A DNA stretch of 64,000 nucleotides from Candidatus Obscuribacterales bacterium (GCA_031292355.1 JARLHI010000040.1:36090-100089); one strand, 5' to 3'. Numbered from the stretch's first letter, positions 25,499 to 55,609 are shown. The notes: a model not told the origin generated them from the sequence alone. Translations and numbers: made by a program.

Positions 25499-26458
25499 CT
25501 AGGCTGCGAGAACCCCCTTGTCGGTGACACCGAGGTTGTGCTGGAACACCAGAACCGTGCCGGTCGAAGTGCCGACCTTCACGAGAGTCGCGAGCTCGAG
25601 CTGCCGATTGAGCAACTTGGTGATCTCGTCGTGCAGTTCCTTCTTCTCTTCCTCGGGAGCGTCTTCAAGTTCGAGAGCTTCGCTCAGTTCGTTGATGGTG
25701 ACGACAGAAGCATCTGCAATCGCCATACGCTCTTCGCCGACGCCTTCACCGTCGAGCTGCCGTTCGATCTTGTCGGCTTCGGCCGCTGCGAGAACCAGAA
25801 CGGCTGCTGTTTCACCGGCAGCCTTTGCGGCGATCTGCAGCTGGGTGTTCACGTAGACCGCATCGCGCGACTTCTGAACCGAATCCGGCAGGGTGATGCC
25901 GTTGAGGTTCACCGAAAGAATGTCGTAGCCGTTGTCGTTCAGGAATTTCGAGATATCCGTCGCGATAGCGGCGATGACCTTGCCAGAGTCGCCGTAGAGG
26001 GTGTCGAGATCCATGGTGGGCACGAGCGCGAGTGCGACTTTGCCAACATGGGACTCGATCTGCGGAACGGGATCGGCCAGGTTGAACATCGCTTGTTCTT
26101 CTTTGCCGCGCTGAACCCGGATGGCGACATTGAGCAGAAGCGAAACCGCGACCTTGTCCTTGGTTGTCGTGGTGACGGTGATCGCATACTGGACGCTCTG
26201 CAGCGAGAAGGGCTCCGAGAGCGAGTGCAGAATCGGCACGACGATGCACCAGCCCTCATGGACGATCTTGACGAAGTTGCCCATTCGCATCTTAGCGCGG
26301 AACGTCATGGTCTGCGTCTTGCGAACGAATATGGCGATGAACAAGGTGGCGGCGACGAGCACCGTACCGAGTAGAAGTATGGCTGTCTGAAAAAGTTGCA
26401 TGAGAAGACTCTCCTTAAGGTTGGTTGATTTCTCTTCTGTGCTCTTTTTATTTGGCAT
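25499..26458 (-). CDS. SPFH/Band-7 membrane protein, paralog A
   Basis: Same architecture as paralog B (…TKDKVAVSLLLNVAIRV…, NGYDILSVNLNGITLP…). Confidence 0.75.
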   Translation of the reverse strand: MPNKKSTEEKSTNLKESLLMQLFQTAILLLGTVLVAATLFIAIFVRKTQTMTFRAKMRMGNFVKIVHEGWCIVVPILHSLSEPFSLQSVQYAITVTTTTKDKVAVSLLLNVAIRVQRGKEEQAMFNLADPVPQIESHVGKVALALVPTMDLDTLYGDSGKVIAAIATDISKFLNDNGYDILSVNLNGITLPDSVQKSRDAVYVNTQLQIAAKAAGETAAVLVLAAAEADKIERQLDGEGVGEERMAIADASVVTINELSEALELEDAPEEEKKELHDEITKLLNRQLELATLVKVGTSTGTVLVFQHNLGVTDKGVLAA

Positions 26459-33196: not shown

Positions 33197-33853
33197 TTAC
33201 AGAATGTCCGCCGCGGTGATCAACGTGACACCATGGGCGGTGAGATCCGCGTCGTCGGCAGCGGCCATTTCAGGTGCGAGCATCGAGCAGGCATCGGTGA
33301 CAAGATATGTCTCGAAGCCTTCGTCGACCGCGTCTTTGGCGGTATAGCTGGCACAGAAAGGACGTGTGATGCCGACCACAACGACGGTCGTTACGCCCTT
33401 ACTGCGCAGCCAATCGGCGAGGTCTGTTTTCTGACCTTTCTTGTTGTCTCGGAAACCCGAGTAGCTGTCGACCTGTTTGTCGGTCCCCTTGCGGACGACG
33501 TGATCGCATCGCGAGCGGTCGAAACTCGGATGGAATTCGGCACCAGGCGTATTCGCGCGTCCGTGGACGGTCCAGAGCATCTGCTGCACGCCGTGCAGGT
33601 CGATGATCTCGCCGGGGTTTTTACCCAAGTGTTGTTCGGCGAAACTTTCGTGATCCGGCGGATGGTGGTCTGCCGTATCGACGACGAGATTGAACTTCGG
33701 TGACGCCGAAAGCTTGTTGACGTTGTGCACAATGGTTGGCGCTGTGGCGACGGGCAGCTCGCCTGTGCCAGGAATGTTTCTGTCTTCCGGAAAGAAGCAG
33801 TTCTGCCCATCCACGCGGATGAGAGCAGTGGTGCCATTGAACGAGATTGTCAT
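33197..33853 (-). CDS. pncA: nicotinamidase / isochorismatase-family hydrolase
   Basis: ALIRVDGQNCF (DxQxDF-type) motif, VVVVGIT…C catalytic Cys region. Adjacent to pncB. Confidence 0.75.
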   Translation of the reverse strand: MTISFNGTTALIRVDGQNCFFPEDRNIPGTGELPVATAPTIVHNVNKLSASPKFNLVVDTADHHPPDHESFAEQHLGKNPGEIIDLHGVQQMLWTVHGRANTPGAEFHPSFDRSRCDHVVRKGTDKQVDSYSGFRDNKKGQKTDLADWLRSKGVTTVVVVGITRPFCASYTAKDAVDEGFETYLVTDACSMLAPEMAAADDADLTAHGVTLITAADIL

Positions 33854-34002
33854 ATGACCTCTTGCTGGTTGATGATGACTGAGACAATGGTGGCAGAAAC
33901 TGGCACCATTGTCCCCGGAAATCTGTCATGTAAGTTCGCCCGGGCAGCTGAGTGCGCGAGCGAGCCGACATGCTCAGATGGTTTTGAGTGCGATCAGGCG
34001 AC

Positions 34003-35202
34003 CTAGGCTGCCTTTTTCAGCTTCAGCGTCCCGTCTATTGGCCGCCCGTGATGAGTCCAGAGTGCGACCTCGACGGCATCGGGGTCGCCGCTGGCCTTTT
34101 CGGGAGAATCGGAAAGTTTGACGACCGGCACGACGATGCCGCTATGGTCGATCACTTCCGCGAGTTTGATCACGATTTTCAGTGCCGGACTTTGGGCGCC
34201 GTAATCGTTGCTCATGGAGGTACCGATGCCAAACCAGCATTTTCCGCCCTTTTCTGCCACCCACAACTTGATGGCGATCGCTGAATCGACATCATTGCCA
34301 TCGGTGAATCCAAGCGGCTTAGTCACCCAGTTGATGCCCAGCTTCCCGTAGTGAGCGATCATCTTCTCCGCCCAGATGTAAGGATCGGCCGAGTCATGGC
34401 GAACGGAGTCGAACTGGCTCGCGAGCAATTTGTCGAAATCTCGCAGGAAAGCGTCCGTACCAAAGGTGTCCGGAAGCGCGACCCCCAGTGCACCCTGATA
34501 GACATCCATCCAGGCTCGCAGTGCGAAGCGGTTGGCGTGACGCAGTGAGAACAAGGCGGAGTGCGCCATGATCCATTCGTGGGCCATGGTGCCGAGCGCC
34601 TTCACTCCGTATTTCATCGCCAGATAAACGTTGCTCGTTCCGGTGAAATTTGGGTTGTGCTGGCAGATGCGCACAACACGCTCCTGGGCTTCGAAATGTC
34701 GGCGACGACGCGTGCCGAAATCGCCCCAGATCACGTTCGCTTCCGTCAGACGCCTGGACTTCTCGAGCATCAGCTCGTCTTGCCCATCGTCGGTCCAGTT
34801 GGTGTCGATTTCCTCGTAGTAGGTTTCGCTGATCATGGCCAGAAGCGGCACTTCCCAGAGGATGGTGCGGCACCAGAGACCAGCTATCTCCACCTGGAGC
34901 TTGCCCTTGTGCAAGCCGACTTTCACCTCCTTGGAATTGAAGCGATAGTTGGCCAGGTATTCCCAGTAGCCGCGATTGATCCACGGCATGTTTTTTTCGC
35001 ACCAAATTCGCTCTACGAGCGAAAGTTTGGCTTTTTCTGCGGCTTTGATCTTGCGCTTTAGAGCCCGCAGAGCCTCTTTGGTCCAGTTGCCCTTGGGCGC
35101 ACGATCCGTAAACCTGTATTTGACGACGATGTCTGGATACAGGCGCAGAACCGCATTCTGCATCGAAAACTTGTAGAGGTCATTGTCGAGAATTGATCGC
35201 AT
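34003..35202 (-). CDS. pncB: nicotinate phosphoribosyltransferase
   Basis: N-terminus ILDNDLYKFSMQNAV matches PncB (…DTDLYKLTMQQA…). 399 aa. Confidence 0.85.
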   Translation of the reverse strand: MRSILDNDLYKFSMQNAVLRLYPDIVVKYRFTDRAPKGNWTKEALRALKRKIKAAEKAKLSLVERIWCEKNMPWINRGYWEYLANYRFNSKEVKVGLHKGKLQVEIAGLWCRTILWEVPLLAMISETYYEEIDTNWTDDGQDELMLEKSRRLTEANVIWGDFGTRRRRHFEAQERVVRICQHNPNFTGTSNVYLAMKYGVKALGTMAHEWIMAHSALFSLRHANRFALRAWMDVYQGALGVALPDTFGTDAFLRDFDKLLASQFDSVRHDSADPYIWAEKMIAHYGKLGINWVTKPLGFTDGNDVDSAIAIKLWVAEKGGKCWFGIGTSMSNDYGAQSPALKIVIKLAEVIDHSGIVVPVVKLSDSPEKASGDPDAVEVALWTHHGRPIDGTLKLKKAA

Positions 35203-35638: not shown

Positions 35639-36064
35639 TCATCCCGGGGCGGCGAGGCTCGTGTGGTGCCACATGCCGAAGCCGATGGTCTGAAAGCCAT
35701 GGCGCTCATAAAAAGCCTGAAGCCACGGCTTAGAATCATCGAAGGTAAGACCGAGGTAGCGAATCTTGTAATTGCTTGCCTCAAGAATCAGCCTGTCGAC
35801 CAGGCAACCGCCGACGCCCATCTGACGTGCGGATGGATGCACTGACAGGTCGCAAATTGTTCCGTGTCGGCGATTCCCAGCGAGAAATCCGACGCCTATC
35901 AACGTGCCGGAAGCGTCTCTTGCACCGGCGACAAAAAGAGACTGCTTTAAGCAATCTTGCCACTCTTTTGCACTTTCAGCTGTGAATAGCTGTTCGCGCA
36001 CTGCAAGCACTTCCGCTGGCATGATTATGCTTGCAGATGGGTCGTTCACCGAGAATTTCAACAT
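35639..36064 (-). CDS. GNAT-family N-acetyltransferase
   Basis: Acetyl-CoA binding motif region …RQMGVGGCLVDRLILEA… and C-terminal YERHGFQ. Confidence 0.7.
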   Translation of the reverse strand: MLKFSVNDPSASIIMPAEVLAVREQLFTAESAKEWQDCLKQSLFVAGARDASGTLIGVGFLAGNRRHGTICDLSVHPSARQMGVGGCLVDRLILEASNYKIRYLGLTFDDSKPWLQAFYERHGFQTIGFGMWHHTSLAAPG

Positions 36065-36205
36065 GCTTTCCCTTTGTCTTCAGATGTTTTTTCAGTATCT
36101 TACGACGATCTTCGGGAAGGAGTGCTTCCCGGAAATAAAGAAGAGGGACGCACCTTAGATTTAAGACGCGTCCCCTAGAGTTTAGATCTCGACTGTTATC
36201 GACGA

Positions 36206-38230
36206 CTACTTGCCTGCGTTGCCTGGCGCAGCACAGGAGCTGTCCAGGTTGTCCAAGATTTTATCGACGTCGGCTTGAGAGTCGACATCGTCGTAGTGCT
36301 GTCCGTGACCGTCTGCCAGGGTGTTTCTGGAATACCCGTGGTAGGCAGGGTTGGTTTGCTGCATCAGGGCTGCAAGTACGTAGATGCAGTGATTCTTGGA
36401 CACGGAGATGAGCGGATCGCGGGCCGTTACGTTGAACAGACCGGGATGAGACGCATTCGCTGCGTTCAGCACCAGCTGCTTCGTGCCGGTCAAATTGAGC
36501 GATTCGATTTGCACCACGGTCATCGAGAGCGACGCCCGGTCAAACAGACCAATGCGTACCCAGGAATTCTGTTGCGTGCCGATTGGCTCGAAGTTGACCA
36601 CTCCCTTGAGACCCCAGTGTTTGAAGTCCTGCCAGTAGGGAGAGGCATTGGCATTGCCAGCGTCAGTCGGATTTTCCGAAAGCTCCAACTGGTTGCCGGT
36701 AATGTGCTTGGCCCAGAACGATGAGTCGTGCGCCCAAAGGTCGGCATATTGCCTGGCAAGATCGCTTGGAACGAAGGCCACACCCGGGAATTTTGCAGCC
36801 GCTTGCGACGGCAGAAGATCCTGAATGAAGCCGTGAGACGAGATGGTCATGACGCCGGAGAGATCCGGAATCATCGAGCCCAACTGGAGCTCTTTGTTGA
36901 CGAACGGAATGACGACGTAAGCGTCCTGGTCTGCCGTCAAAGCGATCATGCCGGGTTGCGGCGTGGCGCCTGGATGACGAGCATAGAATGCGCCCATGGC
37001 AAAGACACTTTCTTCGCCAAAGAGGAATTCCGTTTTGATCGGTTCGCCATAACGACCACGCTCGCCGGCATCGACGAGAACTGCTCCTTGCGTACCGCCG
37101 GTCAGAGCTAGCGGATGGGAGAGAAACAGACCCTTTCGATTCTGGATCGCGGCGAGATCGGGGTGGCGGACACATTCCCAGTAGAAGCGACTGGCACCAC
37201 CAGGTCCATCGTTGATAACGATTGGTCGAGGGGTTTTCGAGATCGTTGTGATTGTCTCCTGGTTGTTGCCCGCACAGTAATCCGAAGCCGCCAGGCGAGG
37301 AACCAGGCGGTTATTGTTCGTAGCATCGAGAGCACTTGCGTCGATTTCGGTGATCGAGACGGCGTTTGCCATCTGGTAATCGTAAATCGTCTGCGACACA
37401 TTCGAGACGAAATAGACCAGACAGAAGACGCCACCGACAGCGGTTGCTGCAAGAAACGTACGATGTGCAGCGATTCCCTGGGCGTCACCTGTGCGCCCAA
37501 GAAACGCGAGGACCGAAAGCGCAACTGCAGTTGCAATGACCAGAGTCATGCCGATGTAGCTGTGCGCCGGCCAGAAGCATGCAACGAACAAGGCGGCCAG
37601 AACCGGCGTCGTCAGCCAGTAATAGTTGGCAGTGGAGGTTTTCTGGCGGATCGAGCTGTAGCCGATGATGGCAAGAGTCGGAATCATCGACAGGACGGGC
37701 CACAGGTTGTACACATGGATTGTCAGCGGGTGCACCGCGGGCAATACCGTCGTGTACAGCACATAGTAAGCGCCGAAGACGACAGCCGGGGCCAGGAACA
37801 GCGCAAGCAGTGCCGCCACTACCTTGCGCCAGATGGCGCCTGGCGCGAGGTATGCTGCGCCCCCAGCTGCGAGCACCGCAAGCAGTGCGCACAGCACCAG
37901 AACGATTGCCGGTTGTACGAGAAAGTAGTACAGAACGGCAACCGTCAGGAACGTGAGGCTGGCCACGGCAAATTTGCGACCGAGGTAGTAAGCCCCGCCC
38001 GCTGCGACGACGAGCACGGCCGGAGTGATATAGAATGGCAGGTAACGACCCACCAGTCCAAGCACAAACGCAAGCAGCACGCCGAGGACACCCTGTTCGC
38101 ACTTGACCAAGGTGTCATGGTTGAAAGCTGGCACAGCTCTCGAAACCGGCAGGTAGCGACCGATAGCGCCGCCTGCCGTTGTAAACCAATTCAAAAGTTT
38201 GTTCATCGTTGACCTCGTGTGAGATGTCAT
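36206..38230 (-). CDS. polytopic membrane protein (~8-10 TM) with large extracytoplasmic C-terminal domain
   Basis: N-terminal ~290 aa is strongly hydrophobic. C-terminal ~380 aa is soluble. First gene downstream of the PstS-like gene in the kinase operon. Confidence 0.55.
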   Translation of the reverse strand: MTSHTRSTMNKLLNWFTTAGGAIGRYLPVSRAVPAFNHDTLVKCEQGVLGVLLAFVLGLVGRYLPFYITPAVLVVAAGGAYYLGRKFAVASLTFLTVAVLYYFLVQPAIVLVLCALLAVLAAGGAAYLAPGAIWRKVVAALLALFLAPAVVFGAYYVLYTTVLPAVHPLTIHVYNLWPVLSMIPTLAIIGYSSIRQKTSTANYYWLTTPVLAALFVACFWPAHSYIGMTLVIATAVALSVLAFLGRTGDAQGIAAHRTFLAATAVGGVFCLVYFVSNVSQTIYDYQMANAVSITEIDASALDATNNNRLVPRLAASDYCAGNNQETITTISKTPRPIVINDGPGGASRFYWECVRHPDLAAIQNRKGLFLSHPLALTGGTQGAVLVDAGERGRYGEPIKTEFLFGEESVFAMGAFYARHPGATPQPGMIALTADQDAYVVIPFVNKELQLGSMIPDLSGVMTISSHGFIQDLLPSQAAAKFPGVAFVPSDLARQYADLWAHDSSFWAKHITGNQLELSENPTDAGNANASPYWQDFKHWGLKGVVNFEPIGTQQNSWVRIGLFDRASLSMTVVQIESLNLTGTKQLVLNAANASHPGLFNVTARDPLISVSKNHCIYVLAALMQQTNPAYHGYSRNTLADGHGQHYDDVDSQADVDKILDNLDSSCAAPGNAGK

Positions 38231-38254
38231 TTTCGGTTAGAGGGACTCTGGCGC

Positions 38255-39340
38255 TTATGGCGCCAGGGCTGATTTGCCGTTCACGTCGATGGACTGGATG
38301 AGCTTAGTGGCCTGACTGACGACGTTGTCGGGCAGAGGCACGTAGTTAAGCGAGGCTTCGACCGATTGACCGTCATGCAGTCCCCAGAGCAGAAACTTCG
38401 CAAGCGAGGAAGCGGTGCTTGTGTCGTGTTGATGCTGGTGGACGATGATGTAGGTCGCGGTCACCAGCGGATACGATGAGTCGCCGCCGGCATCGATCAG
38501 ATTCAGGCGCAGATCGTCTGAACCCTGGGCTTTGAAAGCGACGCTCGCGACAGCCTGGCGGATGTTTTCGAGCGTGGGCTGCACGAAATTGCCGCTGGCG
38601 TTTTTGAGGCTGGCCATCGGCAATTTCTTCGCGACAGCGAAGTTGTAATCGGCGTAGCCGATGGAATAAGGATTGCCATTGACGGCATCGACCACCGGTC
38701 CGTTGCCACCTCTGCCGTCGCCGACAGGCCATATTGTGGCAAAAGCGGCTCCGTTAGTTGCATGCCAGTCCTGGCTTGCAACATTCAGATAGCTGGTGAA
38801 ACCGAATGTGGTGCCTGACCCGTCTCCGCGATGGAAAGCGATGATGGGGAAATTGATGTTCGCCAGGCTGGGATTGACCGCGACCAGGCGCGAATCATTC
38901 CAGTTGCGAATCTTGCCCAGATAGATGAGCGCGATTTGCTCGCCGGTCAGATTGAGAGTGCCCTTGAAGCCTGGCAGGTTGTAGGTGATGACAATGCCAC
39001 CATAAGCGGTGGGGATGTGTAGTACATCTTTGCTGCCGCCTTTGGTGTCACTGAGCTGGTCATCGTTCATCGGCACGTCCGAGCCGGCGAGATCCACGAC
39101 CCGATTTTGGAAACGACCGATGCCTGCGCCCGAGCCGATGCCGTCGAATGTCAGATTGCCCGGATTCTTCTGGAAGAAGGACTTCGCCCAGTTGTCGTAG
39201 AGCGGTTTGGCGAAGGTGGAGCCTGCACCGGTGATGGTGGTCGGCTCCGCTGCATTTGCTGGCAATGCGGAGAGCCATGCCGAAGAGAGCAGTGCGGAGC
39301 CAACCGCGGCGACAAGCAATCTCGACTTTGTCATTTTCAT
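38255..39340 (-). CDS. PstS-like phosphate-binding periplasmic protein (orphan, no pstCAB adjacent)
   Basis: Signal peptide. GAGSTFAKPLY…GIGSGAGIGRF…DLAGSDVPM matches the PstS N-terminal lobe (GAGSTF…IGSG.G…ASD). Confidence 0.75.
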   Translation of the reverse strand: MKMTKSRLLVAAVGSALLSSAWLSALPANAAEPTTITGAGSTFAKPLYDNWAKSFFQKNPGNLTFDGIGSGAGIGRFQNRVVDLAGSDVPMNDDQLSDTKGGSKDVLHIPTAYGGIVITYNLPGFKGTLNLTGEQIALIYLGKIRNWNDSRLVAVNPSLANINFPIIAFHRGDGSGTTFGFTSYLNVASQDWHATNGAAFATIWPVGDGRGGNGPVVDAVNGNPYSIGYADYNFAVAKKLPMASLKNASGNFVQPTLENIRQAVASVAFKAQGSDDLRLNLIDAGGDSSYPLVTATYIIVHQHQHDTSTASSLAKFLLWGLHDGQSVEASLNYVPLPDNVVSQATKLIQSIDVNGKSALAP

Positions 39341-39416
39341 AGAAGCCTCTTGGTGTGAGAGAAATCTGGTAGAGGCAGGGTCAACGAATTGACACTGCGC
39401 TCCTCAGAGAAATAGA

Positions 39417-40925
39417 TCAGGCCTTTGAAAGAGCACGCCATCTGGCGACGGCGCGTTCGGGGCTGGTAGCGGAACGCACGAAGAGGGTGCCCCCGAAGAC
39501 CAGCAGTTGAATTAGAAACAGGATGGCCGGAGTCAGCCATTCGAGGTTGTCGATGTCAGCAAAACCACGCTGAATCGCCGCATTCTGCTGCGCCAGGTTG
39601 ATCTGATAGGTCGAGCCCAGCGTGCCATTCTTAGCCTTCTCATCGATCAGCTGATCGAAAAGATAATTGCCTTGTCCAGGATTGCCGCCGGCCAACAGTG
39701 TGATGGCTTTGGCGTGTTGCCCCTGAAGTTCCAGGCTGCGAACTTGCTTGTCGAGGGCAAGGAAATCCGCATAGACTTTGACCGTTTTCGTGGCACCTTC
39801 GAGTTCACCCGGGAAGGTCACGTTATTCAGTTCGTCGGCGATCTCGCCAGAAAGAACGTCAGGCTTGAGCGGACCACCATCGGTGGTGGCGCTCCAACCG
39901 AGACCTCCCTTGACGTACCCGTGCGTGGCGATGGCGTTGATCGTGTCGGCAGTCTGCCCACGACCGAATTTGCCGATTTTGTCGATGTAGGCATCAAATG
40001 CCTTTTGATGTTGATCGGCGTTCGGGCGATCGAGCAGCCACAGGCTCGCTTCCGCCTTTGCCTGCAGCAGGTCGGCTCGAGTTTGCGTCAGCACTTTCAC
40101 TGAAGGATAGGCGGCTGTGCCGGCGATATAGAGGTCTTCATTCGCGTTGATGAAGGCATAGCCACAGTAGGCGAAGAAGATGAAAGCGAGGCCTGTTGCT
40201 GCCGCGAAGAACGGATTGAGACCGCGCTTGAAAGTCCGCGTTAGCAAGATGCCCTGCACATACAACATGAAGAGGACGAAGATGATGCCGACGCCGGCAG
40301 CTCCGAGTCCCACTATGAGGTGATGTACGCGCGAGGCATACTTGTCTTGCAGATGGGCGTCGTTGACCCCCGAGAGGGCATCGGCCGACGGCAACAAAAC
40401 TTCATTCACAACCGTGTTGATGTCACGAGCCGTGGACAGCACCGCCGCGTCTCCATTTTCATGGAAGACACGCGCTTTGGCTGCCAGCATCAGAAACTGC
40501 GCCCAACCTTCCTGCAGACGATTGACCGGGCCAAGTTCACCCTGAGGCTCACTGGGGTAAAGATGATCGGCATCGTCGGTGTAGGTGATGTTGTGAGCAG
40601 CCTCGGTCAGATTGGCGGCCACGAGCACTTTCGTAGCGTCGAAGTCTTTCACCAAGTCATAGTTTTCGCCAGGCTTGGCGTCGAGCTCGGTGTTCAAATC
40701 TTCGAACATGCGCCCGACGCCAGACTTGATGTTCTGAGCTAGCACTACAGACGGTGCGGCATCCACGCCGATGGTTTTGATCAAGTCGTGATCGCTATAG
40801 CGAGCGGTTTCGATGAAACCGAACGCCAGAATGAGGACGAGGAAGCTCAGAACTGGAACGCGGTTAATGCGCGCCAAGGGATGACTGTTTGTCAGCCAAC
40901 CGATCAGTGATTTTAACGACTGCAT
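39417..40925 (-). CDS. membrane protein with two TM segments flanking a large external domain, unknown function
   Basis: N-terminal TM, central soluble region, a cluster of TM helices around residue 230-290, then a second soluble region and a C-terminal TM. Confidence 0.5.
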   Translation of the reverse strand: MQSLKSLIGWLTNSHPLARINRVPVLSFLVLILAFGFIETARYSDHDLIKTIGVDAAPSVVLAQNIKSGVGRMFEDLNTELDAKPGENYDLVKDFDATKVLVAANLTEAAHNITYTDDADHLYPSEPQGELGPVNRLQEGWAQFLMLAAKARVFHENGDAAVLSTARDINTVVNEVLLPSADALSGVNDAHLQDKYASRVHHLIVGLGAAGVGIIFVLFMLYVQGILLTRTFKRGLNPFFAAATGLAFIFFAYCGYAFINANEDLYIAGTAAYPSVKVLTQTRADLLQAKAEASLWLLDRPNADQHQKAFDAYIDKIGKFGRGQTADTINAIATHGYVKGGLGWSATTDGGPLKPDVLSGEIADELNNVTFPGELEGATKTVKVYADFLALDKQVRSLELQGQHAKAITLLAGGNPGQGNYLFDQLIDEKAKNGTLGSTYQINLAQQNAAIQRGFADIDNLEWLTPAILFLIQLLVFGGTLFVRSATSPERAVARWRALSKA

Positions 40926-40959
40926 ATTTTTCTCTCCTGATTGTTTCGTTAAGAAGGGT

Positions 40960-41661
40960 TCAGTCCTGCTCGTGATAGACGATCAGAAAGAAATCACCGA
41001 TCTTGATGGCGTCACCATCTTTGAGTGCGACCGTTTGTCCTTTGGCGATTTCGACGCCGTTGACCTCCGTGAAGTTCTCGGTATCGCATTGCAGTTCATA
41101 GCCGCCGGCCGGTGTGCGATGAAAATAGCCATGCACGCGAGAGACGGTCTGGTCGCCCAGGATCGGGATAACCGGACTCATGCGACCGAACGGTACACGT
41201 ACGCCGCTCAGTGTGTAGCCCGTGCTCGGCACTGTGGGCGCCACCACATCATCAGGACGCAACGGACGCGGATCGAGATCCACGGAAACTTCGATGTAGC
41301 AGAGTTTGCAACTGGTGTTGCCAGCCGTGTTGTCTGCATTCGCCTGGGTGGAAGCGGCCGGCTGCGCGATTGCAGGCGCTTGCACTGCCGGTTGCGGTTC
41401 GGATGATGGCGCAAGCGCAGGTGTGTGCGTATCCGCATCGTCGACATGAACGACGGTGCTTGCTTGCACATTGGTGCTTGCGTCGTCAGTGGCAGGGTCG
41501 TGAACGCTTCCATCCGAATTTAATTGAACGATCGGGTCTGCGTCGCTGAAAGCATGTCCGCAGCCGCTCGAACAGAATAAGTCGTCCACCTCTGCGATCG
41601 TCTTGCAAACAGGGCAGATACGTCCCTGTTTGAGCGGAGACGAAGTCTCGTTGCTGGTCAT
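40960..41661 (-). CDS. zinc-ribbon + FHA-domain protein
   Basis: N-terminal CPVCK…FCSSGCGH. C-terminal FHA (…PFGRMSPVIPILGDQTVSRVHGYFHRT…NGVEIAKGQTVALKDGDAIKIGDFFLIVY). Start re-placed at MTSNE after GAGGAG. Confidence 0.75.
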   Translation of the reverse strand: MTSNETSSPLKQGRICPVCKTIAEVDDLFCSSGCGHAFSDADPIVQLNSDGSVHDPATDDASTNVQASTVVHVDDADTHTPALAPSSEPQPAVQAPAIAQPAASTQANADNTAGNTSCKLCYIEVSVDLDPRPLRPDDVVAPTVPSTGYTLSGVRVPFGRMSPVIPILGDQTVSRVHGYFHRTPAGGYELQCDTENFTEVNGVEIAKGQTVALKDGDAIKIGDFFLIVYHEQD

Positions 41662-41745
41662 AAAAAACTCCTCATTGGTCAAGGGGCAAGCGGACGAACA
41701 CTTGAGTGCTCGTCCGCTCATGCTGTCGCTTTTCGTAAGGAGTCC

Positions 41746-43131
41746 TTACGACTGAGTGGTGGTCGCAGCGGCGGCCGTGGTGTCGGCCGGAGCCGCCGTC
41801 GGTGCAGCGACTGCGCGCGTGCGACGAACGCTCGAACCGGCGTTGATCTTCATGCCGGTCGCGGCGTCCGTGTTCTTCAGCTTCACCTTGCCGGTTGCAG
41901 CGTCCAGAATCTCAACGAATTCCTTCAGCTGCTCAAGCAGATCGATGTCGCCGTCTTCATGCGCTGTCTTGACCAGATCGCCGAGAATATCGCTTGCGCC
42001 GCGGGTGTTGCCACCCTTGAGCAGATCGCCTGCTTCACGCATGCGGCGCTGCGAACCCTCGATGCCCTGAGCCACCTTGACGCCGCGGGTGACGCGCTGG
42101 CTGAGTGACGCTTCCTCCGAGTTGCGCGCCCACTGAGCCTTGATCGGGAACGGATCGCTCTTCACGAGCTGCCCGCCGACTTTGTATTCGAACCAGATTT
42201 TGGCTGCCATCACCGCTGGTGCGTTGCTCGGACGAGCGACTTCGAAAGCGAGGTAGAACAGACGCGTTTCGGCATCCCAGGAACCGAGGTTGACGCGGAT
42301 GAACTTCTCGCCTTCCTTGCTGCAGGCGTTTTCCAGGTCGAGGCTGACCGGGGAGCGCACGGCGATGTCCAGGATGTCGCCCATGTTGAACTTCTGGATC
42401 ACCATGGTCACCCCAGACAGAGCCTGACTGGCTGCCTGAGCTACCATGCCCTCGAAGTCGGCCTTGACTTCGGAAGGATTGGCGAGCACCACCGGCGGTG
42501 CCGAGCCGGTGCCGTCCGAGATCAAGCGCAGCTTGTCCATTTCCCAGTCGGTGCCGACGCCGCGAGCGAGGACTCGCAGAATCTGCCCCTGCTTGGCGAG
42601 ACCCTGGTAGGCAACGAGCTCTTCGCCGACTGAGACGCGATCACCGTAATCACCATCGGTGAGCAAGCCGGCGAAGCCTTCGGTCACTTTGCCGGCCTTT
42701 GCAAGAGCGCAGTAGTCCTCCCGGAAGAGCTGCAGACCGCCGGCTGTCTGGGTCGAACCCTCGAGCGCAGGCAGTTTCTGGCGCAGGGCGTGCTTGGCCG
42801 CCTCGATGTTCTGCGGCGTCGCGAGGGCCGGATGGAAGAGCCGGTGCTTGGACGAGCCGAAGAGGTAGACCGCGACGTAGTTCTGCGGCGACTTGAGCAT
42901 GGCGTCGAGGAAGGCGCACGCCCCTTCGACAGCCGCTTGAATCTTGGCGCCCTTCATGGAGACCGAGATATCCAGAATTACGGCCGCCAGACGCGGAGGC
43001 TGCACCGTCGCTGTGGCATCGAAGCCGACAGGGGTAACGAAGAAGGCGGCGTCCTGACGCGTGGCGTCGGCCTTCAGGATCTCGTTGATGTCGGTCTTGA
43101 TTTGCAGCGAGGGGGAGGCGATGTTTGACAT
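41746..43131 (-). CDS. von Willebrand factor type A (VWA) domain protein
   Basis: MIDAS motif AAVILDISVSM…, then YLFGS. Long C-terminal region. Start re-placed at MSNIASP after GGAG (the ORF track TTG start at 43218 is unlikely). Confidence 0.7.
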   Translation of the reverse strand: MSNIASPSLQIKTDINEILKADATRQDAAFFVTPVGFDATATVQPPRLAAVILDISVSMKGAKIQAAVEGACAFLDAMLKSPQNYVAVYLFGSSKHRLFHPALATPQNIEAAKHALRQKLPALEGSTQTAGGLQLFREDYCALAKAGKVTEGFAGLLTDGDYGDRVSVGEELVAYQGLAKQGQILRVLARGVGTDWEMDKLRLISDGTGSAPPVVLANPSEVKADFEGMVAQAASQALSGVTMVIQKFNMGDILDIAVRSPVSLDLENACSKEGEKFIRVNLGSWDAETRLFYLAFEVARPSNAPAVMAAKIWFEYKVGGQLVKSDPFPIKAQWARNSEEASLSQRVTRGVKVAQGIEGSQRRMREAGDLLKGGNTRGASDILGDLVKTAHEDGDIDLLEQLKEFVEILDAATGKVKLKNTDAATGMKINAGSSVRRTRAVAAPTAAPADTTAAAATTTQS

Positions 43132-43226
43132 ATTTGGCTCCATCAGTGTCATTGAGAATTGGTGATTGTCTGCAAGGAATTTGCAGACTCGATCACATTG
43201 GATACGCACGAAAGTCAAGCAGGCTT

Positions 43227-44399
43227 TTAAAAGTTGATCACAGCGATGGTGTTGTTGTCTGCACCACTTGCTCTTTTGAGGACAGCCTCGGCAAAGCCCA
43301 TGGCGCTCCTCGGATTGCTCGCAAATATCTTGGCGAACTCGCCGGACTGGGGTAAGTCCATATCATGGACGTCATTCCAGGCTCCGTCAGAACAGCCGAA
43401 GATAGACACAAGGGTTGAATCGATGGTCACAGTCGACGTCGACGGTGCATAGATCTCACCCTCAGGCACTTCACCAAGGCATTGCGTCATCGTATGCAAT
43501 TCCTTAGTAGTGAACTTCTTGTAGGCTTCTGCCGCAGAGACACCCGTCTGGTCAATCATCTCGTTGAGAAGGGTATGGTCGCGCGACAGCAGTTTGTCGG
43601 AGTAACCGCAACTCGCAGTCGAGTCACGATAGATGGCATAAAGGCGACTATCGCCGCACCACCCTAGAGACGCCACACCATCATCGATGAAGGCGACGAT
43701 GATGGTGCAAGCTGGAGCAGAGAAGTCAGCGTCGGCGTTGAGTTCGGCTGGGACTTTCAAAACCGCCGACTGGGCAGAATTGATAGCCGCAAGCACGAGT
43801 CCTTCACTGCCCTTCTGGCGACTGAGAGCAGCAATTCTCAGCGTTGCCGATGCGGCTCTGCACGCTTCTTCCGAGGCTTGTTGAGGAGCCTTAGAAGAAG
43901 AGACACCGTCTGCCACCACGAACCAGCTGATTCTCTTGCCGTCGACTACAACGGAGTCCATCGCCGCGTAATCTTCGTTGCGAGAATGGCCGATCGTGGG
44001 ATTGCCGAGATTGCTTCGTGCCACTATATTCGGTGTGACTTCGATGAAGAAGTCATCGCGACATGGTAGCACTGCTTGAACCCAGCACTTCGTGCAAAAG
44101 CCATCTTCATCGAAATTTGATGAATCGGCATTGCAGCCGACACACTTTGGCGCAATATAGTGACGGATGTTATCCGCCTCCTCTGGCACCTGGATGGCGA
44201 CTGCTGCCGCTTGCTCTGTTTTGGGCGGTTCGACTTCGACAATCGTCGCTGCCGCCGGAGTTGTCGTTGCCTTTTCGATCGAGCCGGCATCGTCTTGTGC
44301 CGAGTCGTATTCTTTGCCACACTTCGAGCAGAAAAGATCTCCTGGCTCACGCGTTGGACACGGGTCTCGTCGTGCATTGAGGTAAGGACAGGGCTCCAT
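43227..44399 (-). CDS. zinc-ribbon + PP2C-family Ser/Thr phosphatase
   Basis: N-terminal CPYLN…CPTRE…FCSKCGKEY. PP2C motifs GHSRNEDYAA, VVADGVSSS, GDSRLY, CSDGAW, DNNTIAVI. Confidence 0.75.
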   Translation of the reverse strand: MEPCPYLNARRDPCPTREPGDLFCSKCGKEYDSAQDDAGSIEKATTTPAAATIVEVEPPKTEQAAAVAIQVPEEADNIRHYIAPKCVGCNADSSNFDEDGFCTKCWVQAVLPCRDDFFIEVTPNIVARSNLGNPTIGHSRNEDYAAMDSVVVDGKRISWFVVADGVSSSKAPQQASEEACRAASATLRIAALSRQKGSEGLVLAAINSAQSAVLKVPAELNADADFSAPACTIIVAFIDDGVASLGWCGDSRLYAIYRDSTASCGYSDKLLSRDHTLLNEMIDQTGVSAAEAYKKFTTKELHTMTQCLGEVPEGEIYAPSTSTVTIDSTLVSIFGCSDGAWNDVHDMDLPQSGEFAKIFASNPRSAMGFAEAVLKRASGADNNTIAVINF

Positions 44400-44408
44400 T
44401 GATGCACC

Positions 44409-46712
44409 TCAAATGTATTTGAAGGGCCCTGCTTTGAGCGCCTCCGCGATGAGACTATTGCGTTCGTCTCCAGAGGTGTGACTGGCGCAGATGCTGAGAT
44501 GGAGATTTGCTGCGGTGCGAAGATCGTAGCTTTTGAGCTTGACGCCCATCAGTTTGATCTGAGCATCGGCTGCAACATCGCCGCTTTCGACGGCTCGTGT
44601 TCCCGCCAGATACAAATCAGCGGCCAGACGATGCCAGTCGAGATTGTCTTGCATGACACCGGCGATGATACCGGCGGCCGCAACCAATTCGTCTTTGCCT
44701 GGTTTGCTGCTCGGTAGCGTCTCGATGAGCACCCTTGCTGCCTGCATTTCAGCCGGCACGTGGGCGATCGAAGATGACGGTACTCGCTTAAGGGCTTTCA
44801 CCGCCGAAGCGCGATTGCCTTCAAGTGCCAGGCTGCGAGAGTGAACGAAGGCGGCCATGGCGAATCTGTCGGCATCGACCAATGTGACCAAGTCACAGCA
44901 GCCAATCGCTGTCGAGGTGTCGCCGACAAGCTCCGAAGCAAAGCCCAGAGCCAACTTGGCCGCGGGTTCGCCAGGCAGCTGGACGACGACCGAGCTGTAA
45001 AATTCCACAGCGCGATTGTGATCGCCCTTTGCCAGAGCCAGTAGACCGCGTAACCAAACGGTCTTCCAGTCATCCGGTTCAGACTCTGCCAGGGTGTTGA
45101 GAAGTCCTTCGGCTTCATTGTGTTCGTCGAGCTGGATCAGACAGTGAGCCAGACGAAAGCGTGCCTCGCGTGATTTCGGATGCTTGTCGGCGAGAGCCAC
45201 CAGGACGGGCTTCAACTCACTGGCTGCGGTTGCGGCTTTTAGAGCCGTCTCCACTTCTCCGCGAGCAGAATCGTCCATGTCGATTTTGAGACCAGGCAGC
45301 AAACGCCAGTTGGCTTCAGGCGAGCCGTTGCTGATGTCGCCGTCGAAGAACTCGGACTCGAGTGGCTTGGTCGCACCCGTATCGATTGCTACCACTTCTC
45401 TGAGAACGCCCCAGAGTTGTGCTTCGAATTCGGCTACGGATGAGAAGCGATCGAGCGGGTCGGGAGCCGTCGCGCGCCTGATGATTGCGGCATACGAAGG
45501 ATATTTGTCGAAGTTTTCGAGATCGTCTGGCAGCGAGTAGCGGTACATCTCTTCGAAGTCGAAGACGTTCGAAAGTACAGCCAGCACGCGTCCTAGCGAG
45601 TAGAGGTCCGACTGCTCCGACAGAATAAGGTCGACGCTTTCGTCATCGACTTCGCGCGGAGCATAGCCCTTGGTGGATGTGACATTCGGCATCAGGTTCG
45701 TAGCCAGAACGCAGCCACCGGCGTCGATCATCACCATGCGATTGCCGGTGACCATGAAGTTGCCTGGCTTGATGTCGGGGTTGAAAACCTTCGGCTTCTG
45801 CTCATGGAGGAAGCCGATGGACTGACACATGCCCAGAACATAGGCGATAGACTGCGCGACAGGTAGCGGTTCGTTGTTGTCTTCGTAGATCTGTTCGACC
45901 GTTTTTCCGTCGACCAGCTGCATGGCGATGAGCGGCTGATTCTGGTGGGTTTTGAAGCCGAAGATCTGCACCACCGACGGATGAGAAAGCTTAGCGAGCA
46001 TCTGCTTTTCGGCAATGGCCGCTTCGCGATCCATCTTGTTGTTGGTGATCACGCCCTTGACGATAGCCCAGCGTTCGACGTCGAGGTCCCAGCACAGGTA
46101 AATGTAGCCGCAACCTCCCTTGGCGATGGTGCCTTTCACTTCATATTGGTTGGCGACGATGGTGCCGGGCAACATCGCGTACGAATATGGTGAACCGCAT
46201 TTGGTGCAGACACCAGAATCCGCCAGGTTGCCGTCCTTGTCGCGACGGGTAAGAGGAACCCTCACACCGGGATGGCGCTTGCCGGTCGGATCATCGCAGA
46301 AGCGCTGCTCGACAGGCACATCCCACTTGGTCTTGATCAAGTGCAACGGATCTGTCTGCGGCACTTCGCTCACAGCGACAAAACCGCCGCCCAGGTTGCG
46401 TCGCTTTGAAGAGGAGGTTTGGCTGCTGGCACCGCCCAGACGCTTCTTGTTCAATAGCCCTTGGGCTTGTGCCGCCGGCTTGCCGATGAATCGTACGGAG
46501 CGCCTGGACGAACGCAGAGATGAGCCGCCGATTTTCGCGCTGCTGCGTGCCGAGTTCGTATTCTTCGCCACCGCTACCGCCACCGATGGCAGCAGCGTAA
46601 GGTCAACCATGGCGCCGCAGTCGTTGCAGAAGCCATCTGCGATGACACCGCCGCATTTGGCTCCATTGACTATCTGTTCACATATTGGCATGGCCATTAC
46701 TGATCTCTCCAT
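44409..46712 (-). CDS. zinc-ribbon + Ser/Thr protein kinase (non-RD type) + TPR-repeat C-terminal domain
   Basis: N-terminal CEQIVNGAKCGG…FCNDCGAM. Gly-loop AKGGCGYIY, VAIK-like AIVKG, catalytic loop NPDIKPGNFMV (HRD replaced by NPD), DAG in place of DFG, APE-like region. C-terminal TPR repeats. Confidence 0.75.
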   Translation of the reverse strand: MERSVMAMPICEQIVNGAKCGGVIADGFCNDCGAMVDLTLLPSVAVAVAKNTNSARSSAKIGGSSLRSSRRSVRFIGKPAAQAQGLLNKKRLGGASSQTSSSKRRNLGGGFVAVSEVPQTDPLHLIKTKWDVPVEQRFCDDPTGKRHPGVRVPLTRRDKDGNLADSGVCTKCGSPYSYAMLPGTIVANQYEVKGTIAKGGCGYIYLCWDLDVERWAIVKGVITNNKMDREAAIAEKQMLAKLSHPSVVQIFGFKTHQNQPLIAMQLVDGKTVEQIYEDNNEPLPVAQSIAYVLGMCQSIGFLHEQKPKVFNPDIKPGNFMVTGNRMVMIDAGGCVLATNLMPNVTSTKGYAPREVDDESVDLILSEQSDLYSLGRVLAVLSNVFDFEEMYRYSLPDDLENFDKYPSYAAIIRRATAPDPLDRFSSVAEFEAQLWGVLREVVAIDTGATKPLESEFFDGDISNGSPEANWRLLPGLKIDMDDSARGEVETALKAATAASELKPVLVALADKHPKSREARFRLAHCLIQLDEHNEAEGLLNTLAESEPDDWKTVWLRGLLALAKGDHNRAVEFYSSVVVQLPGEPAAKLALGFASELVGDTSTAIGCCDLVTLVDADRFAMAAFVHSRSLALEGNRASAVKALKRVPSSSIAHVPAEMQAARVLIETLPSSKPGKDELVAAAGIIAGVMQDNLDWHRLAADLYLAGTRAVESGDVAADAQIKLMGVKLKSYDLRTAANLHLSICASHTSGDERNSLIAEALKAGPFKYI

Positions 46713-46824
46713 TAAGGTTTGATGGACTGAATTCCAGGCAGGGTCTCAACCGGACCCTACCAGGCTAGACTTGAGCCCTCATCGGGTTTTCATTGAGACT
46801 GACCTGGAAATCAGAGCGAAAATT

Positions 46825-47865
46825 TCAGGTTTTGCTGCCGGCGTCGGCTTCGAGCCGCGCGAGCATCTCCTGGAATTTCTGCACCGCGTCCTCGGCCGCC
46901 TTCACATCGCACGGGCGCTTGCGAGCGAGCGTGAGAACGAGAGCCGCCTGACTGTTCAGCGCTTCGTTTCCACCTTCGCCGGCAAATTTGCCGCGCTCGG
47001 CTGCCCGATACAAGGTGGAAAAGAATCCCTCCACAGACTCGGGCTGAGCGGCCTGTTTGTTCTTGGCCTTGAGCGTCTTCTGACGTTCCTCCAGCAGTGC
47101 CTGGGCAGTGGAGAACCACGAATATACAGTGAGAGCCGCCTGCGGGAAATTGTTCTCGTCTGCCGCCATTTGTGCGGTGGTGAGTGTCGTCGCCAGGGCG
47201 CCTATCGCATCCTTTTGATCGACATTTTCGGCCGCCGCGCCGAGAACGATGGAAACCAGCTTGACCTGCGTCGCAACGACCCTGGTGTTGATCTTCTCGA
47301 GATCGCTGAGGAGCGTCGTGGCGTCGGCGAGCTTGTTGCGGACCGAAGTTTCGTCGGTCGAGAAAGAATCGACGGCAGTGCTTGCGGCGATGATGAGTGC
47401 CTCGAGATTCGTAGCTTCGGCCGAAACGTCGGCGTTGGGATTGGTCTTGAGGGCATCGCGGATGGTGTCAACCGCCTTGGCGCAGGCGGCGACTTCTGGT
47501 AGCTCGAGAGCGCCCTTGGCTGAGGCGATTTCTTGAACGCTCGCGAAGGTAGCGAGCTTGACGGCGAGCTGAGGAGGCATGCCGTTCGCGGCCTCGCGTA
47601 AGCTTGCTACAACGCTGGACAAATCACCGAGAGCGGCGGTGCCGGTTGTTTTCGCGCGGGCGATGATGGCATCGAGTTGAGCGAGCGCCTGTGCGCGTGC
47701 CTGCGGGTCGGTCATCGAGCGAGCTTTGTTCAAAGCGGCAGTGACGCCCGGTTCCACGGCAGTCCAGGCTTCGCGGGCGGCTGTGCTAGCTGTGCGTGCA
47801 TACTGACCGGCCTTGTGAGCAGCGCCAAGAAGGGTCTCGAAGATATCGGAAGACGACATTCGCAT
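46825..47865 (-). CDS. Ala-rich all-helical hypothetical protein, first gene of the kinase operon
   Basis: 346 aa, predicted helical and Ala-rich. 112-nt gap to the kinase gene on the same strand. Confidence 0.5.
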   Translation of the reverse strand: MRMSSSDIFETLLGAAHKAGQYARTASTAAREAWTAVEPGVTAALNKARSMTDPQARAQALAQLDAIIARAKTTGTAALGDLSSVVASLREAANGMPPQLAVKLATFASVQEIASAKGALELPEVAACAKAVDTIRDALKTNPNADVSAEATNLEALIIAASTAVDSFSTDETSVRNKLADATTLLSDLEKINTRVVATQVKLVSIVLGAAAENVDQKDAIGALATTLTTAQMAADENNFPQAALTVYSWFSTAQALLEERQKTLKAKNKQAAQPESVEGFFSTLYRAAERGKFAGEGGNEALNSQAALVLTLARKRPCDVKAAEDAVQKFQEMLARLEADAGSKT

Positions 47866-48313
47866 TCTCCATTGAGTTGAAGCGGTTGACAGTTAAAGAG
47901 TTGCTCTAGCCCCGCCCAATACATCTGGCACCAGTCACCACTATCACCAAACCAAAAGCGCAAACGACGTCGCTTAGACCAGAAGTGCTAAGAGACGATG
48001 TAAGTGATTGGTGATAAGCGCTGAGTAGTAAGTTTTTCTGCTGCGAGTAAGTATGTGGGGAGTACCTTCACCCTACAATTCTTATATGCGCAGATGCCAA
48101 GAACTTTGCGCACCTGCAACAAACTTTGGGTGAATCAGTTCGCGCTACGTTGATGAGTACAAAACTTAAACACATCAACATTTAGATACGAAATAGTGTC
48201 ATCGATGTGGCAAGGCTATTTATGCGGCTTTTCTGTGAAAAACGAAAGAGATTATAAACAGCATTGGTATGATAAAATGACGGCGCCAAGTTTAAAAATA
48301 AAGAAAAACGAAA

Positions 48314-54933: not shown

Positions 54934-55609
54934 GCGCGTTCTAGCAGGTGCGATTCAAGTTTGCTCGGCGTCGTGCTCAAATATAAACAAAAGGTGATTC
55001 TTGAGCGTGAACTCCGCTAGCGCCTATCTTGGTAAATTGAGTCTCATTACCATTTGATACGCAAACTCGCAGGTATTAAGACGCAGCAAGACCAATTGCA
55101 TCTATATACGTTGGATTGCTTTAGACATCCTGAGACTGGTGGTTTTAAGTTCGCGATCGGTTGGAACTCCATTACTCATCAAGGTTTCGGAATTTCTCCA
55201 CGCAATGCTCGCATTGCTTTGTTAATGCCTTGCAACAAGCGCTTGGAATCATTTGTTTTATGGTTCACCTCCTTGTTACGGTCAGATGTCTTTCCATCCC
55301 CAAACCTTCTCTGAGTTTCCCCGCACAATAAACAGCTGCTTGTTCTACTGAAAATTCGCTCGATCCTCAAAGGGATGGTCGGTCTCGTGTGCGGTTTGTC
55401 TATCAGTGTCAATCAGCAGCTCCAGCCTTCAACCCCTAGCTAGCTGTTGTCACCGTAAGTGTCTGTAGCGCGTTCGTGCGGCTAGCGCTGATCTGTTTGT
55501 GTGTATCCAGTCTGGATTACTACGCACGAGCAGATGTTTGCTGACCGTTTTCCTTCTCATCTACTGCAAATCATCAACCGTGTTTGCAGCTTTCACCCGG
55601 AGGTTCAAT

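Follow-up and report, generated by a model that had tools for sequence, protein, structure and literature searches.

A periplasmic binding protein that stimulates a Ser/Thr kinase is known from one characterised system, GlnH-GlnX-PknG, which is regarded as an actinobacterial speciality with control over glutamate metabolism and over Mycobacterium tuberculosis virulence (PMC8050422, PMC8546545, bioRxiv 10.64898/2026.07.02.735984). The pathway is described as a three-gene operon of Corynebacteriales (reviews; bioRxiv 10.64898/2026.07.02.735984). The binding protein reports its occupancy to the helical bundles of GlnX, the target of GlnX is the TPR domain of PknG, and phosphothreonines on the kinase serve to recruit an FHA protein (PMC8546545; bioRxiv 10.64898/2026.07.02.735984). 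The chemoreceptor CtpL, in turn, has a helical bimodular sensor domain that is activated by phosphate-loaded PstS (PMC8050422). Here, we describe an operon of eight genes, g1 to g8 in the direction of transcription, on the minus strand of a 64-kb stretch of DNA (the window) from a metagenome-assembled genome (MAG) of Candidatus Obscuribacterales (Melainabacteria), an origin borne out by database proteins of 100% identity. We read the locus, with a probability of roughly 60%, as a PknG/GlnX-type pathway of transmembrane Ser/Thr phosphosignalling that is coupled to a binding protein, with PstS as the putative reporter of phosphate. That it is a binding-protein-coupled signalling cassette of the PknG/GlnX type is highly probable; that phosphate is its signal is slightly better than an even bet.

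The locus is homologous to the PknG/GlnX/GlnH pathway and differs from it in input, gene content and host phylum. With GlnH-GlnX-PknG-GarA/OdhI (Rv0412c-Rv0410c in M. tuberculosis; also in Corynebacterium glutamicum) it shares a kinase composed of rubredoxin-like, kinase and PknG_TPR domains, a transducer with four transmembrane segments, two four-helix bundles and, among its top structural neighbours, both of those given for GlnX, a gene for a secreted binding protein adjoining the transducer gene, and an FHA protein. However, the binding protein is of the PstS type (PBP_like_2, phosphate) and not GlnH (SBP_bac_3, Asp/Glu), the operon also holds the PP2C, VWA, FHA and g1 genes, and there are N-terminal zinc ribbons on kinase, phosphatase and FHA protein alike. 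The GarA-type N-terminal Thr motif is missing from the FHA protein and the C-terminal REY from the transducer, and the operon comes from a Melainabacterium; PknG orthologs, by contrast, have been described as mostly restricted to Actinobacteria (PMC8546545).

All eight open reading frames (ORFs) proposed in a sequence-only reading of this DNA are present where it had placed them, and seven of its eight descriptions hold; the membrane protein g6, called bitopic there, has four membrane passes and is GlnX-like. The Ser/Thr kinase domain recognised in that reading was confirmed, but the homology of the trio of kinase, membrane protein and binding protein to PknG, GlnX and GlnH had escaped it. Its view of the locus as a device that senses across the membrane, signals by Ser/Thr phosphorylation and is fed by a phosphate-binding-protein homolog is supported by the domain assignments and by the co-occurrence of the genes. 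The gene starts used here come from a separate, independent gene call for this contig and are slightly shorter for g2, g4, g5 and g8; the alignment of homologs likewise favours the shorter starts of g4 (M30) and g5 (M21). Unless stated otherwise, all coordinates of the window below refer to the minus strand.

The product of g2 (44409-46697, 762 aa) is a PknG-family kinase specifically, not a generic kinase. It is built of an N-terminal zinc ribbon, a Ser/Arg-rich linker, a rubredoxin-like domain, the kinase domain and a TPR domain, in this order. The zinc ribbon (46614-46682; C-x9-C...C-x2-C, CEQIVNGAKCGGVIADGFCNDCG) has cysteines that are conserved in the kinase alignment. The rubredoxin-like domain of PknG has two CxxCG motifs and lies beside the kinase core and is absent in corynebacteria. 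In g2 (46179-46409) it matches PknG_rubred (PF16919) with 48.2 bits (cut-off 28.5, E = 1.1e-12) and has three of the four canonical cysteines; the first CxxC is reduced to a single Cys (RFCDDPTG) in the clade of the window and the second motif, CTKCG, is intact. The catalytic domain (residues 190-380, 45573-46145) matches Pfam Pkinase at 2.4e-19, with NPDIKPGN as catalytic loop and IDAG as the equivalent of DFG. The Lys, the alphaC Glu, the catalytic Asp, Lys and Asn and the Asp of DxG are invariant in the alignment. The C-terminal PknG_TPR domain (PF16918, residues 508-756, 44445-45191; 111.8 bits, cut-off 27, E = 3.9e-32) is where the membrane transducer presumably docks. The best solved match, PknG of M. 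tuberculosis (2pzi, 250 bits), spans rubredoxin, kinase and TPR domains; C. glutamicum PknG (7mxb) gave 158 bits and PknB about 51 bits.

The membrane component g6 (39417-40925, 502 aa) is a GlnX-like four-pass transducer with transmembrane segments, by hydropathy, at residues 23-41, 203-221, 241-259 and 461-479. They set off two periplasmic domains of about 150-200 residues, the topology of GlnX (PMC9769921). The AlphaFold2 model (pLDDT 82.6) has two periplasmic four-helix bundles of the Tar/CHASE3 type that are continuous with the transmembrane helices. LytS and MCP2201 are among its top-ranking structural neighbours; these are the neighbours given for C. glutamicum GlnX, whose four transmembrane helices and two bundles were shown experimentally (PMC9769921). 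Solved sensors that share the fold of g6 dock solute-binding proteins. The NCBIfam GlnX model NF058618 matches nearly the full length of g6 at E = 1.3e-36; the GlnX equivalog NF041460 reaches 18 bits at a cut-off of 780, and PF28326 (Sensor_actino) is found only as a precomputed Pfam match graded "faint" or "weak". A GlnX-type gene is linked to pknG-type and solute-binding-protein genes in the window and in the related loci L001, L005, L009, L010, L080 and L081.

Inspection of the transducers revealed two kinds of C terminus. The GlnX-like proteins of L013-L072, from different phyla, stop a few residues beyond their final transmembrane helix, in a conserved PR(I/L)xEY. In the window, L001, L005 and L009 the tail reads R(S/A)xxSP(E/A)RA; the C terminus of g6 in this clade is SPERAVARWRALSKA. 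The catalytic loop of the kinase is NPDIKPGN in the same clade and CDFKPDN in most other cassettes. That tail and loop have both changed in the window clade hints at co-divergence.

g7 (38255-39340, 361 aa) codes for a secreted protein with a signal peptide and otherwise no transmembrane segment. With 307.6 bits against the PstS equivalog TIGR00975 (cut-off 205) the PBP_like_2 protein, described as PstS-like from the sequence alone, clears the threshold of the family. Solved PstS structures, that of E. coli and others, are matched at about 1e-57, and the phosphate ligands T10, F11, S38, D56, R135, D137, S139, G140 and T141 of E. coli PstS are all identical. Judged by these residues g7 is a bona fide PstS with a complete phosphate-binding site, for which phosphate binding is predicted. 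Genes for the permease and ATPase of the ATP-binding cassette (ABC) transporter (pstCAB) were called neither within 10 kb on either side of g7 nor among the scanned ORFs of at least 250 aa in the window.

The PP2C, VWA and FHA assignments of the sequence-only reading were all borne out by domain searches, that of the VWA protein via its metal ion-dependent adhesion site (MIDAS) and its orthologs. All three proteins are cytoplasmic. g3 (43227-44399, 390 aa) is a PP2C Ser/Thr phosphatase with two N-terminal zinc ribbons. Its catalytic domain (about 43236-43985) matches PP2C_2 at 3.8e-11 and the Stp1/IreP model at 3.2e-18, and the metal motifs NED, DG, GDSR, DG and DN, which are near-invariant in 57 orthologs, are all present. 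g4 (41746-43131, 461 aa) is a cytoplasmic VWA protein with a VWA_3_C tail. By itself it matches Pfam weakly (VWA, E = 0.01, sub-threshold; VWA_3_C, 3e-4), but its orthologs give clear matches to VWA, VWA_2, VWA_3 and VWA_3_C. The MIDAS residues DxSxS, T and D are conserved in 56-57 of 58 VWA sequences and the site is intact in the VWA fold of g4 (about 42508-42981). Since the motif is conserved and the orthologs match strongly, the assignment is secure. Several Thr residues are conserved in the VWA family; all are substituted in g4, and no substrate site could be proposed there. g5 (40960-41661, 233 aa) combines a zinc ribbon with conserved cysteines and an FHA domain (PF00498, about 40996-41190; 2.1e-08, 34.9 bits, cut-off 20.7), whose residues for phosphothreonine binding, GR, SxxH and N, are kept by 47-49 of the 49 sequences. 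The OdhI model NF041660 gave 15.3 bits at a cut-off of 200, and between zinc ribbon and FHA domain there is no conserved acceptor Thr.

The first gene of the cassette, g1 (46825-47859, 344 aa), encodes an Ala-rich coiled-coil protein that is cytoplasmic, with no predicted transmembrane segment. Homologs stand at the same position in L001, L005, L009, L010 and L012 (31-55% identity) and, with weaker similarity, in cassettes of other phyla. Neither Pfam nor NCBIfam matched g1, Pfam was likewise empty for 19 members of the family, and a profile of these 19 sequences retrieved only coiled-coil noise from the PDB sequences. A divergent TelA or PspA was considered and rejected, the hhalign probability with a 41-sequence profile being at most 2.5%.

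How widespread is this arrangement? Closest to the window are L001 and L005, which keep the order g1-g7 and have no g8, and L009, which keeps all eight genes. L012 has g1-g6 and g8 and no gene for a binding protein. In L010 the order is g1-g2-g6-SBP_bac_3-g3-g4-g5-g8, with a GlnH-type amino-acid-binding protein beside the transducer in place of PstS. Pairwise identities confirmed the orthology of every gene in these close relatives. A wider scan with the kinase alignment against one genome per species yielded 60 PknG-like loci, onto which profile hidden Markov models of g1-g8 were mapped. Kinase, PP2C and VWA genes stand together in 53 of the 60 and g2-g6 in 46, most exceptions being loci cut by contig ends. 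The hosts are Acidobacteriota (Granulicella, Bryobacterales, Terriglobia, Blastocatellia), Cyanobacteria MAGs, Verrucomicrobiota, Pseudomonadota (Paraherbaspirillum soli, Oxalobacteraceae, Lichenihabitans, Lichenibacterium minor), Geobacteraceae and many Actinomycetota, and the cassettes hardly vary in their catalytic, MIDAS and phosphothreonine-binding residues. Thus, g1-g6 are a cassette conserved in at least six bacterial phyla. The sequence-only reading had treated the genes as one module, and the survey of gene neighbourhoods indeed finds their orthologs together across many genomes; with the same genes and gene order repeated in dozens of genomes of several phyla, chance does not account for the clustering. 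A scan of genome contigs with the GlnX-like alignment found no relative. Full-text searches of the literature for PknG with VWA and PP2C, or with TelA and FHA, returned no description of the cassette.

PknG-like genes without any cassette partner, despite several kb of flanking sequence, were seen in L035 and L038 (Synechococcales MAGs) and in L047 (Actinomycetota MAG); stand-alone versions of the kinase therefore exist. In a Bryobacterales MAG (L011, identical to L030; 16369-22193) three consecutive genes for SpoIIE-type (PP2C-like) phosphatases, one with GAF domains, follow the GlnX-like gene, and genes for PspA_IM30 and an AAA ATPase stand ahead of the cassette.

The binding protein behaves as a modular input of the cassette, and is PstS, a family-3 amino-acid type or missing altogether. 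A PstS gene adjoins the g6 gene in the window, L001, L005 and L009, and an SBP_bac_3 gene adjoins the g6-type gene in L010 and in Actinomycetota. Two alphaproteobacterial cassettes of different gene order, L046 and L063, have a PBP_like_2 gene attached that has the phosphate ligands intact, which is a second, independent association with PstS. A comparison of L009 (PstS) with L010 (SBP_bac_3) is instructive in this respect: the kinases are equally close to that of the window (44% and 43% identity), but g6 is 40.5% identical in L009 and only 24% in L010, although most other cassette proteins of L010 are as close to those of the window as the proteins of L009, or closer. The divergence of g6 thus tracks the partner, which gives modest quantitative support for partner-specific coupling.

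Other genes join the cassette in certain lineages. In proteobacterial cassettes the gene directly upstream of that for the VWA protein encodes TelA (PF05816, 90 bits); the TelA cluster counts five loci, of which one member, L022, was scanned with Pfam and matched TelA. PspA/IM30, often together with an AAA ATPase, flanks the cassette in 12 loci of Acidobacteriota and Verrucomicrobiota. The pknG clusters of Nocardioides sambongensis (L080, CP041091.1) and Kineosporia sp. NBRC 101731 (L081) have ten genes in the order TelA, small ORF, ORF of 489-562 aa, GlnX, SBP_bac_3, g1-like, PknG, PP2C, VWA and FHA; the 489-562-aa ORF matches AAA ATPases in Kineosporia only. In the light of these ten-gene clusters of Actinomycetota, the three-gene glnX-glnH-pknG operon of mycobacteria and corynebacteria looks reduced, and the mycobacterial operon appears to be a reduced form of a larger system. 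It is possible, and we propose it tentatively, that the three-gene PknG pathway is the stripped remnant of an ancient cross-phylum cassette of six to ten genes (coiled-coil protein, PknG-type kinase, PP2C, VWA, zinc-ribbon FHA and GlnX-type transducer, with or without TelA, PspA and AAA ATPase). Its input would have been re-programmable by exchange of the binding protein, and in the window it would act as a sensor of extracellular phosphate via Thr phosphorylation rather than via PhoR/PhoB.

A possible course of signalling follows the PknG scheme. PstS in the periplasm would dock on both bundles of g6 and report phosphate occupancy; docking would shift the transmembrane helices and the short cytoplasmic tail of g6, and the tail would act on the TPR domain of the membrane-recruited kinase. 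The kinase would autophosphorylate and then phosphorylate its partners in the cassette, with the FHA protein reading phosphothreonines, the VWA protein serving as a metal (MIDAS)-dependent adaptor and PP2C resetting the switch. The zinc ribbons of kinase, phosphatase and FHA protein may co-localise the enzymes. The locus encodes no DNA-binding output regulator. The output is most likely protein-protein control of a membrane or envelope-linked process. TelA, PspA/IM30 and AAA ATPases, which recur with the cassette in other lineages, point to such an output; in this lineage the cassette is tied to the membrane protein g8.

The docking step postulated for g7 and g6 has its counterpart in Pseudomonas aeruginosa, where loaded PstS docks on the all-helical periplasmic domain of CtpL (PMC8050422). 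CtpL, however, is a methyl-accepting chemoreceptor that feeds CheA and not a Ser/Thr kinase, and its PstS belongs to the transporter and the pst operon, whereas g7 is a dedicated gene beside the receptor gene. Xylose sensing by LytS-XylFII of Clostridium beijerinckii differs in that a single-bundle sensor leads to a histidine kinase and a response regulator. PstSCAB-PhoU-PhoR/PhoB also uses the occupancy of PstS as a read-out of external phosphate, but there the ABC transporter and PhoU relay the signal to a histidine kinase, none of which is encoded in the locus. If it is true that a phosphate-binding protein feeds the kinase, external phosphate would be sensed independently of the Pst transporter, PhoU and the PhoR relay. 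The kinase-transducer pair is now placed in a much larger, cross-phylum set of genes with a varying binding protein, and the conserved PP2C, VWA, FHA and coiled-coil genes are candidate partners for PknG biology. Cassettes are found in the cultured hosts N. sambongensis, Kineosporia, P. soli and L. minor, the last with a PstS-like gene in the cassette.

Several observations speak against a phosphate-reporting PknG/GlnX-type pathway. The 126.6 bits of g6 for NF058618 are below the curated cut-off of 250, and g6 lacks the C-terminal PR(I/L)xEY of nearly all other cassette transducers. In GlnX of M. smegmatis a C-terminal Glu-Tyr pair (E437/Y438) is needed for signalling to PknG (bioRxiv 10.64898/2026.07.02.735984), and with the REY-type tail missing the coupling to the kinase may differ in the clade of the window. 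g5 has no N-terminal Thr motif (ETTS) like that of GarA/OdhI, so that a kinase substrate cannot be assigned there. Many cassettes are without any binding-protein gene; the transducer may therefore sense directly, with PstS perhaps only modulating. The PstS-type cassette is rare, known from a handful of metagenome contigs, and a scan of metagenome contigs with the GlnX-like alignment returned only one contig of 1.7 kb, which was already known, and no further PstS-type examples. Finally, g7 may serve a pstSCAB system encoded outside the 64 kb at hand.

In a different proposal the cassette is a sensor of membrane or envelope stress or of toxic oxyanions, a Ter-type "TerY-P" phosphorylation switch; the GlnX-like protein would sense directly and PstS would be a lineage-specific addition that tunes the response or reports an oxyanion, for example arsenate, in place of nutritional phosphate. 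VWA protein, PP2C and kinase are the components of TerY-P, a predicted metal-sensing switch linked to tellurite resistance (PMC11090510), and the genes of a stand-alone cytoplasmic VWA protein, a PP2C and a zinc-ribbon kinase are adjacent in the TerY-P triad as in g2-g3-g4 and in 53 of 60 related loci. TelA is associated with relatives of the cassette in Proteobacteria and Actinomycetota, where it precedes the VWA gene and heads the Nocardioides and Kineosporia clusters, respectively; the 12 loci with PspA/IM30 and the lack of a binding-protein gene in most cassettes point in the same direction. On the other hand, the operon of the window has no TelA, PspA or AAA gene, the PADLOC models of TerY-P miss g3 and g4, and in g7 D56 is retained together with every other ligand that is typical of orthophosphate binding at high affinity. 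The cassette differs from TerY-P in that it always includes the FHA protein, the GlnX-like transducer and g1, and the only experimentally studied member takes a nutrient stimulus via a binding protein (PMC6069109, PMC9769921). We consider this proposal unlikely; it is partly compatible with a PknG/GlnX-type pathway, as it concerns stimulus and output and not the architecture. The same likeness to TerY-P could indicate an anti-phage defence system, for TerY-P-like modules of VWA protein, PP2C and kinase have been shown to act as stand-alone defence (summarised in PMC11090510), and the kinase domain of g2 matches several PADLOC models of defence kinases. These matches cover the generic catalytic domain only, and g3, g4 and g5 have none. 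The defence TerY-P kinase ends in an OB fold or a zinc ribbon and not in a PknG TPR (PMC11090510); the zinc ribbon of g2 is N-terminal and its C terminus is the PknG TPR. With housekeeping neighbours (dapD, an M20 peptidase and NAD salvage), a periplasmic sensor and binding proteins and a gene order conserved across phyla the locus is unlike a defence island, and among the explanations weighed here defence is the least credible.

PstS normally serves the PstCAB transporter, and g7, an equivalog-level PstS, could simply be a component of phosphate uptake, perhaps together with the polytopic g8 directly downstream of it in the window and in L009, that shares an operon with an unrelated kinase module. 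This is improbable, as permease and ATPase genes were called neither within 10 kb nor among the scanned ORFs of the window and g8 itself resembles no transporter family. The binding-protein gene stands beside the GlnX-like gene as glnH stands beside glnX, even where it is swapped for SBP_bac_3. Moreover, g8 occurs without PstS in L010 and L012 and without the cassette in L082 and L083, and PstS without g8 in L001 and L005; on the co-occurrence of g8 a transporter made of g7 and g8 was rejected. Very improbable, too, is a cassette that regulates a secretion or motility apparatus encoded elsewhere post-translationally, in the way of PpkA, PppA and Fha1 of type VI secretion. The TagQRST-PpkA-PppA-Fha1 pathway likewise has kinase, PP2C, FHA and VWA components under a periplasmic signal, and g5 weakly matches the FHA models of TagH and GltG. 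But the match to TagH (TIGR03354) is 29.6 bits, far under the cut-off of 120.25. The VWA protein g4 is cytoplasmic and separate from the kinase, whereas the VWA domain of PpkA is periplasmic and part of the kinase; and g2 is of the PknG type, a family unrelated to PpkA. No secretion genes are present within 10 kb, those of type VI secretion included, and none were noticed in the related loci annotated with Pfam or in the recurrent families of neighbours covered by the scan. The comparison with type VI secretion drawn in the sequence-only reading is thus an analogy, and the absence of secretion genes that it reported stands.

The last gene of the operon, g8 (36206-38206, 666 aa), codes for an orphan polytopic membrane protein; about 7-9 helices lie in the membrane, and an external, beta-rich domain takes up about 390 residues. 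The protein matched no family, and no Pfam domain was found on ten remote homologs; a Foldseek search of the PDB had no match at E <= 0.001, with weak beta-propeller-like matches at a TM-score of about 0.2. The family is small, with 127 relatives among 1.84 billion representative proteins. g8 ends the cassette in four loci, one of them with rearranged gene order, is missing from the closest relatives L001 and L005 and is solitary in L082 and L083. It is a facultative and only occasional partner of the cassette. Both membrane proteins had been counted as parts of the module from the sequence alone, and this applies to g6 but not to g8.

The genes are closely spaced: the gaps from g1 to g8 are, in order, 127, 9, 95, 84, 34, 76 and 48 nt, and a ribosome-binding site of the GGAG/GAGG type precedes all eight starts. 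The upstream border of the operon is a non-coding stretch of 454 nt between dapD and g1. A terminator-like hairpin at 36144-36175, 31 nt past the stop codon of g8, closes the transcription unit; its 14-bp stem has seven G-C pairs and is followed by a T-rich tail (CTTCTTTATT), and no stronger site of this kind lies in the region, the hairpin being a match to the consensus only. A scan for sigma-70 promoters found sites no more numerous than in shuffled sequence, and neither tRNA genes nor Rfam families at the gathering threshold were detected in the whole 64 kb.

Downstream on the same strand lie genes for a GNAT acetyltransferase, a nicotinate phosphoribosyltransferase and an isochorismatase-family protein (33197-35202 and 35639-36064), the last of which may be a nicotinamidase of NAD salvage; the hairpin, together with gaps of 141 and 436 nt, sets these genes apart from the operon. 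Three SPFH/Band_7 (stomatin/flotillin-like) genes follow on the minus strand at 24473-25426, 25499-26458 and 30914-33088, of which the one about 3 kb downstream of the operon encodes a protein of 724 aa. Together with the linkage of PspA and TelA to relatives of the cassette, the Band_7 neighbours conceivably point to a theme of membrane organisation; no conserved linkage of Band_7 genes to the cassette was seen.

The G+C content is 54-59% over 30-48 kb, a block that includes the operon, the NAD-salvage genes and Band_7 genes, and 46-50% in most of the remaining window. As the block exceeds the operon, the cassette alone is not marked as an island. A second block of about 60% G+C at 56-60 kb contains an ORF of 1028 aa (55499-58585, plus strand) to which no Pfam family matched at E <= 1e-5.

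The hexamer ACTTAC occurs three times, exactly, within 53 nt (48000-48052) at 140-190 nt upstream of g1, and 22 times in the whole window, both strands counted. This cluster is absent upstream of g1 in L001, L005, L009, L010 and L012; L001 and L005 share a different motif at this place, TTCATGACATCTCTCA.

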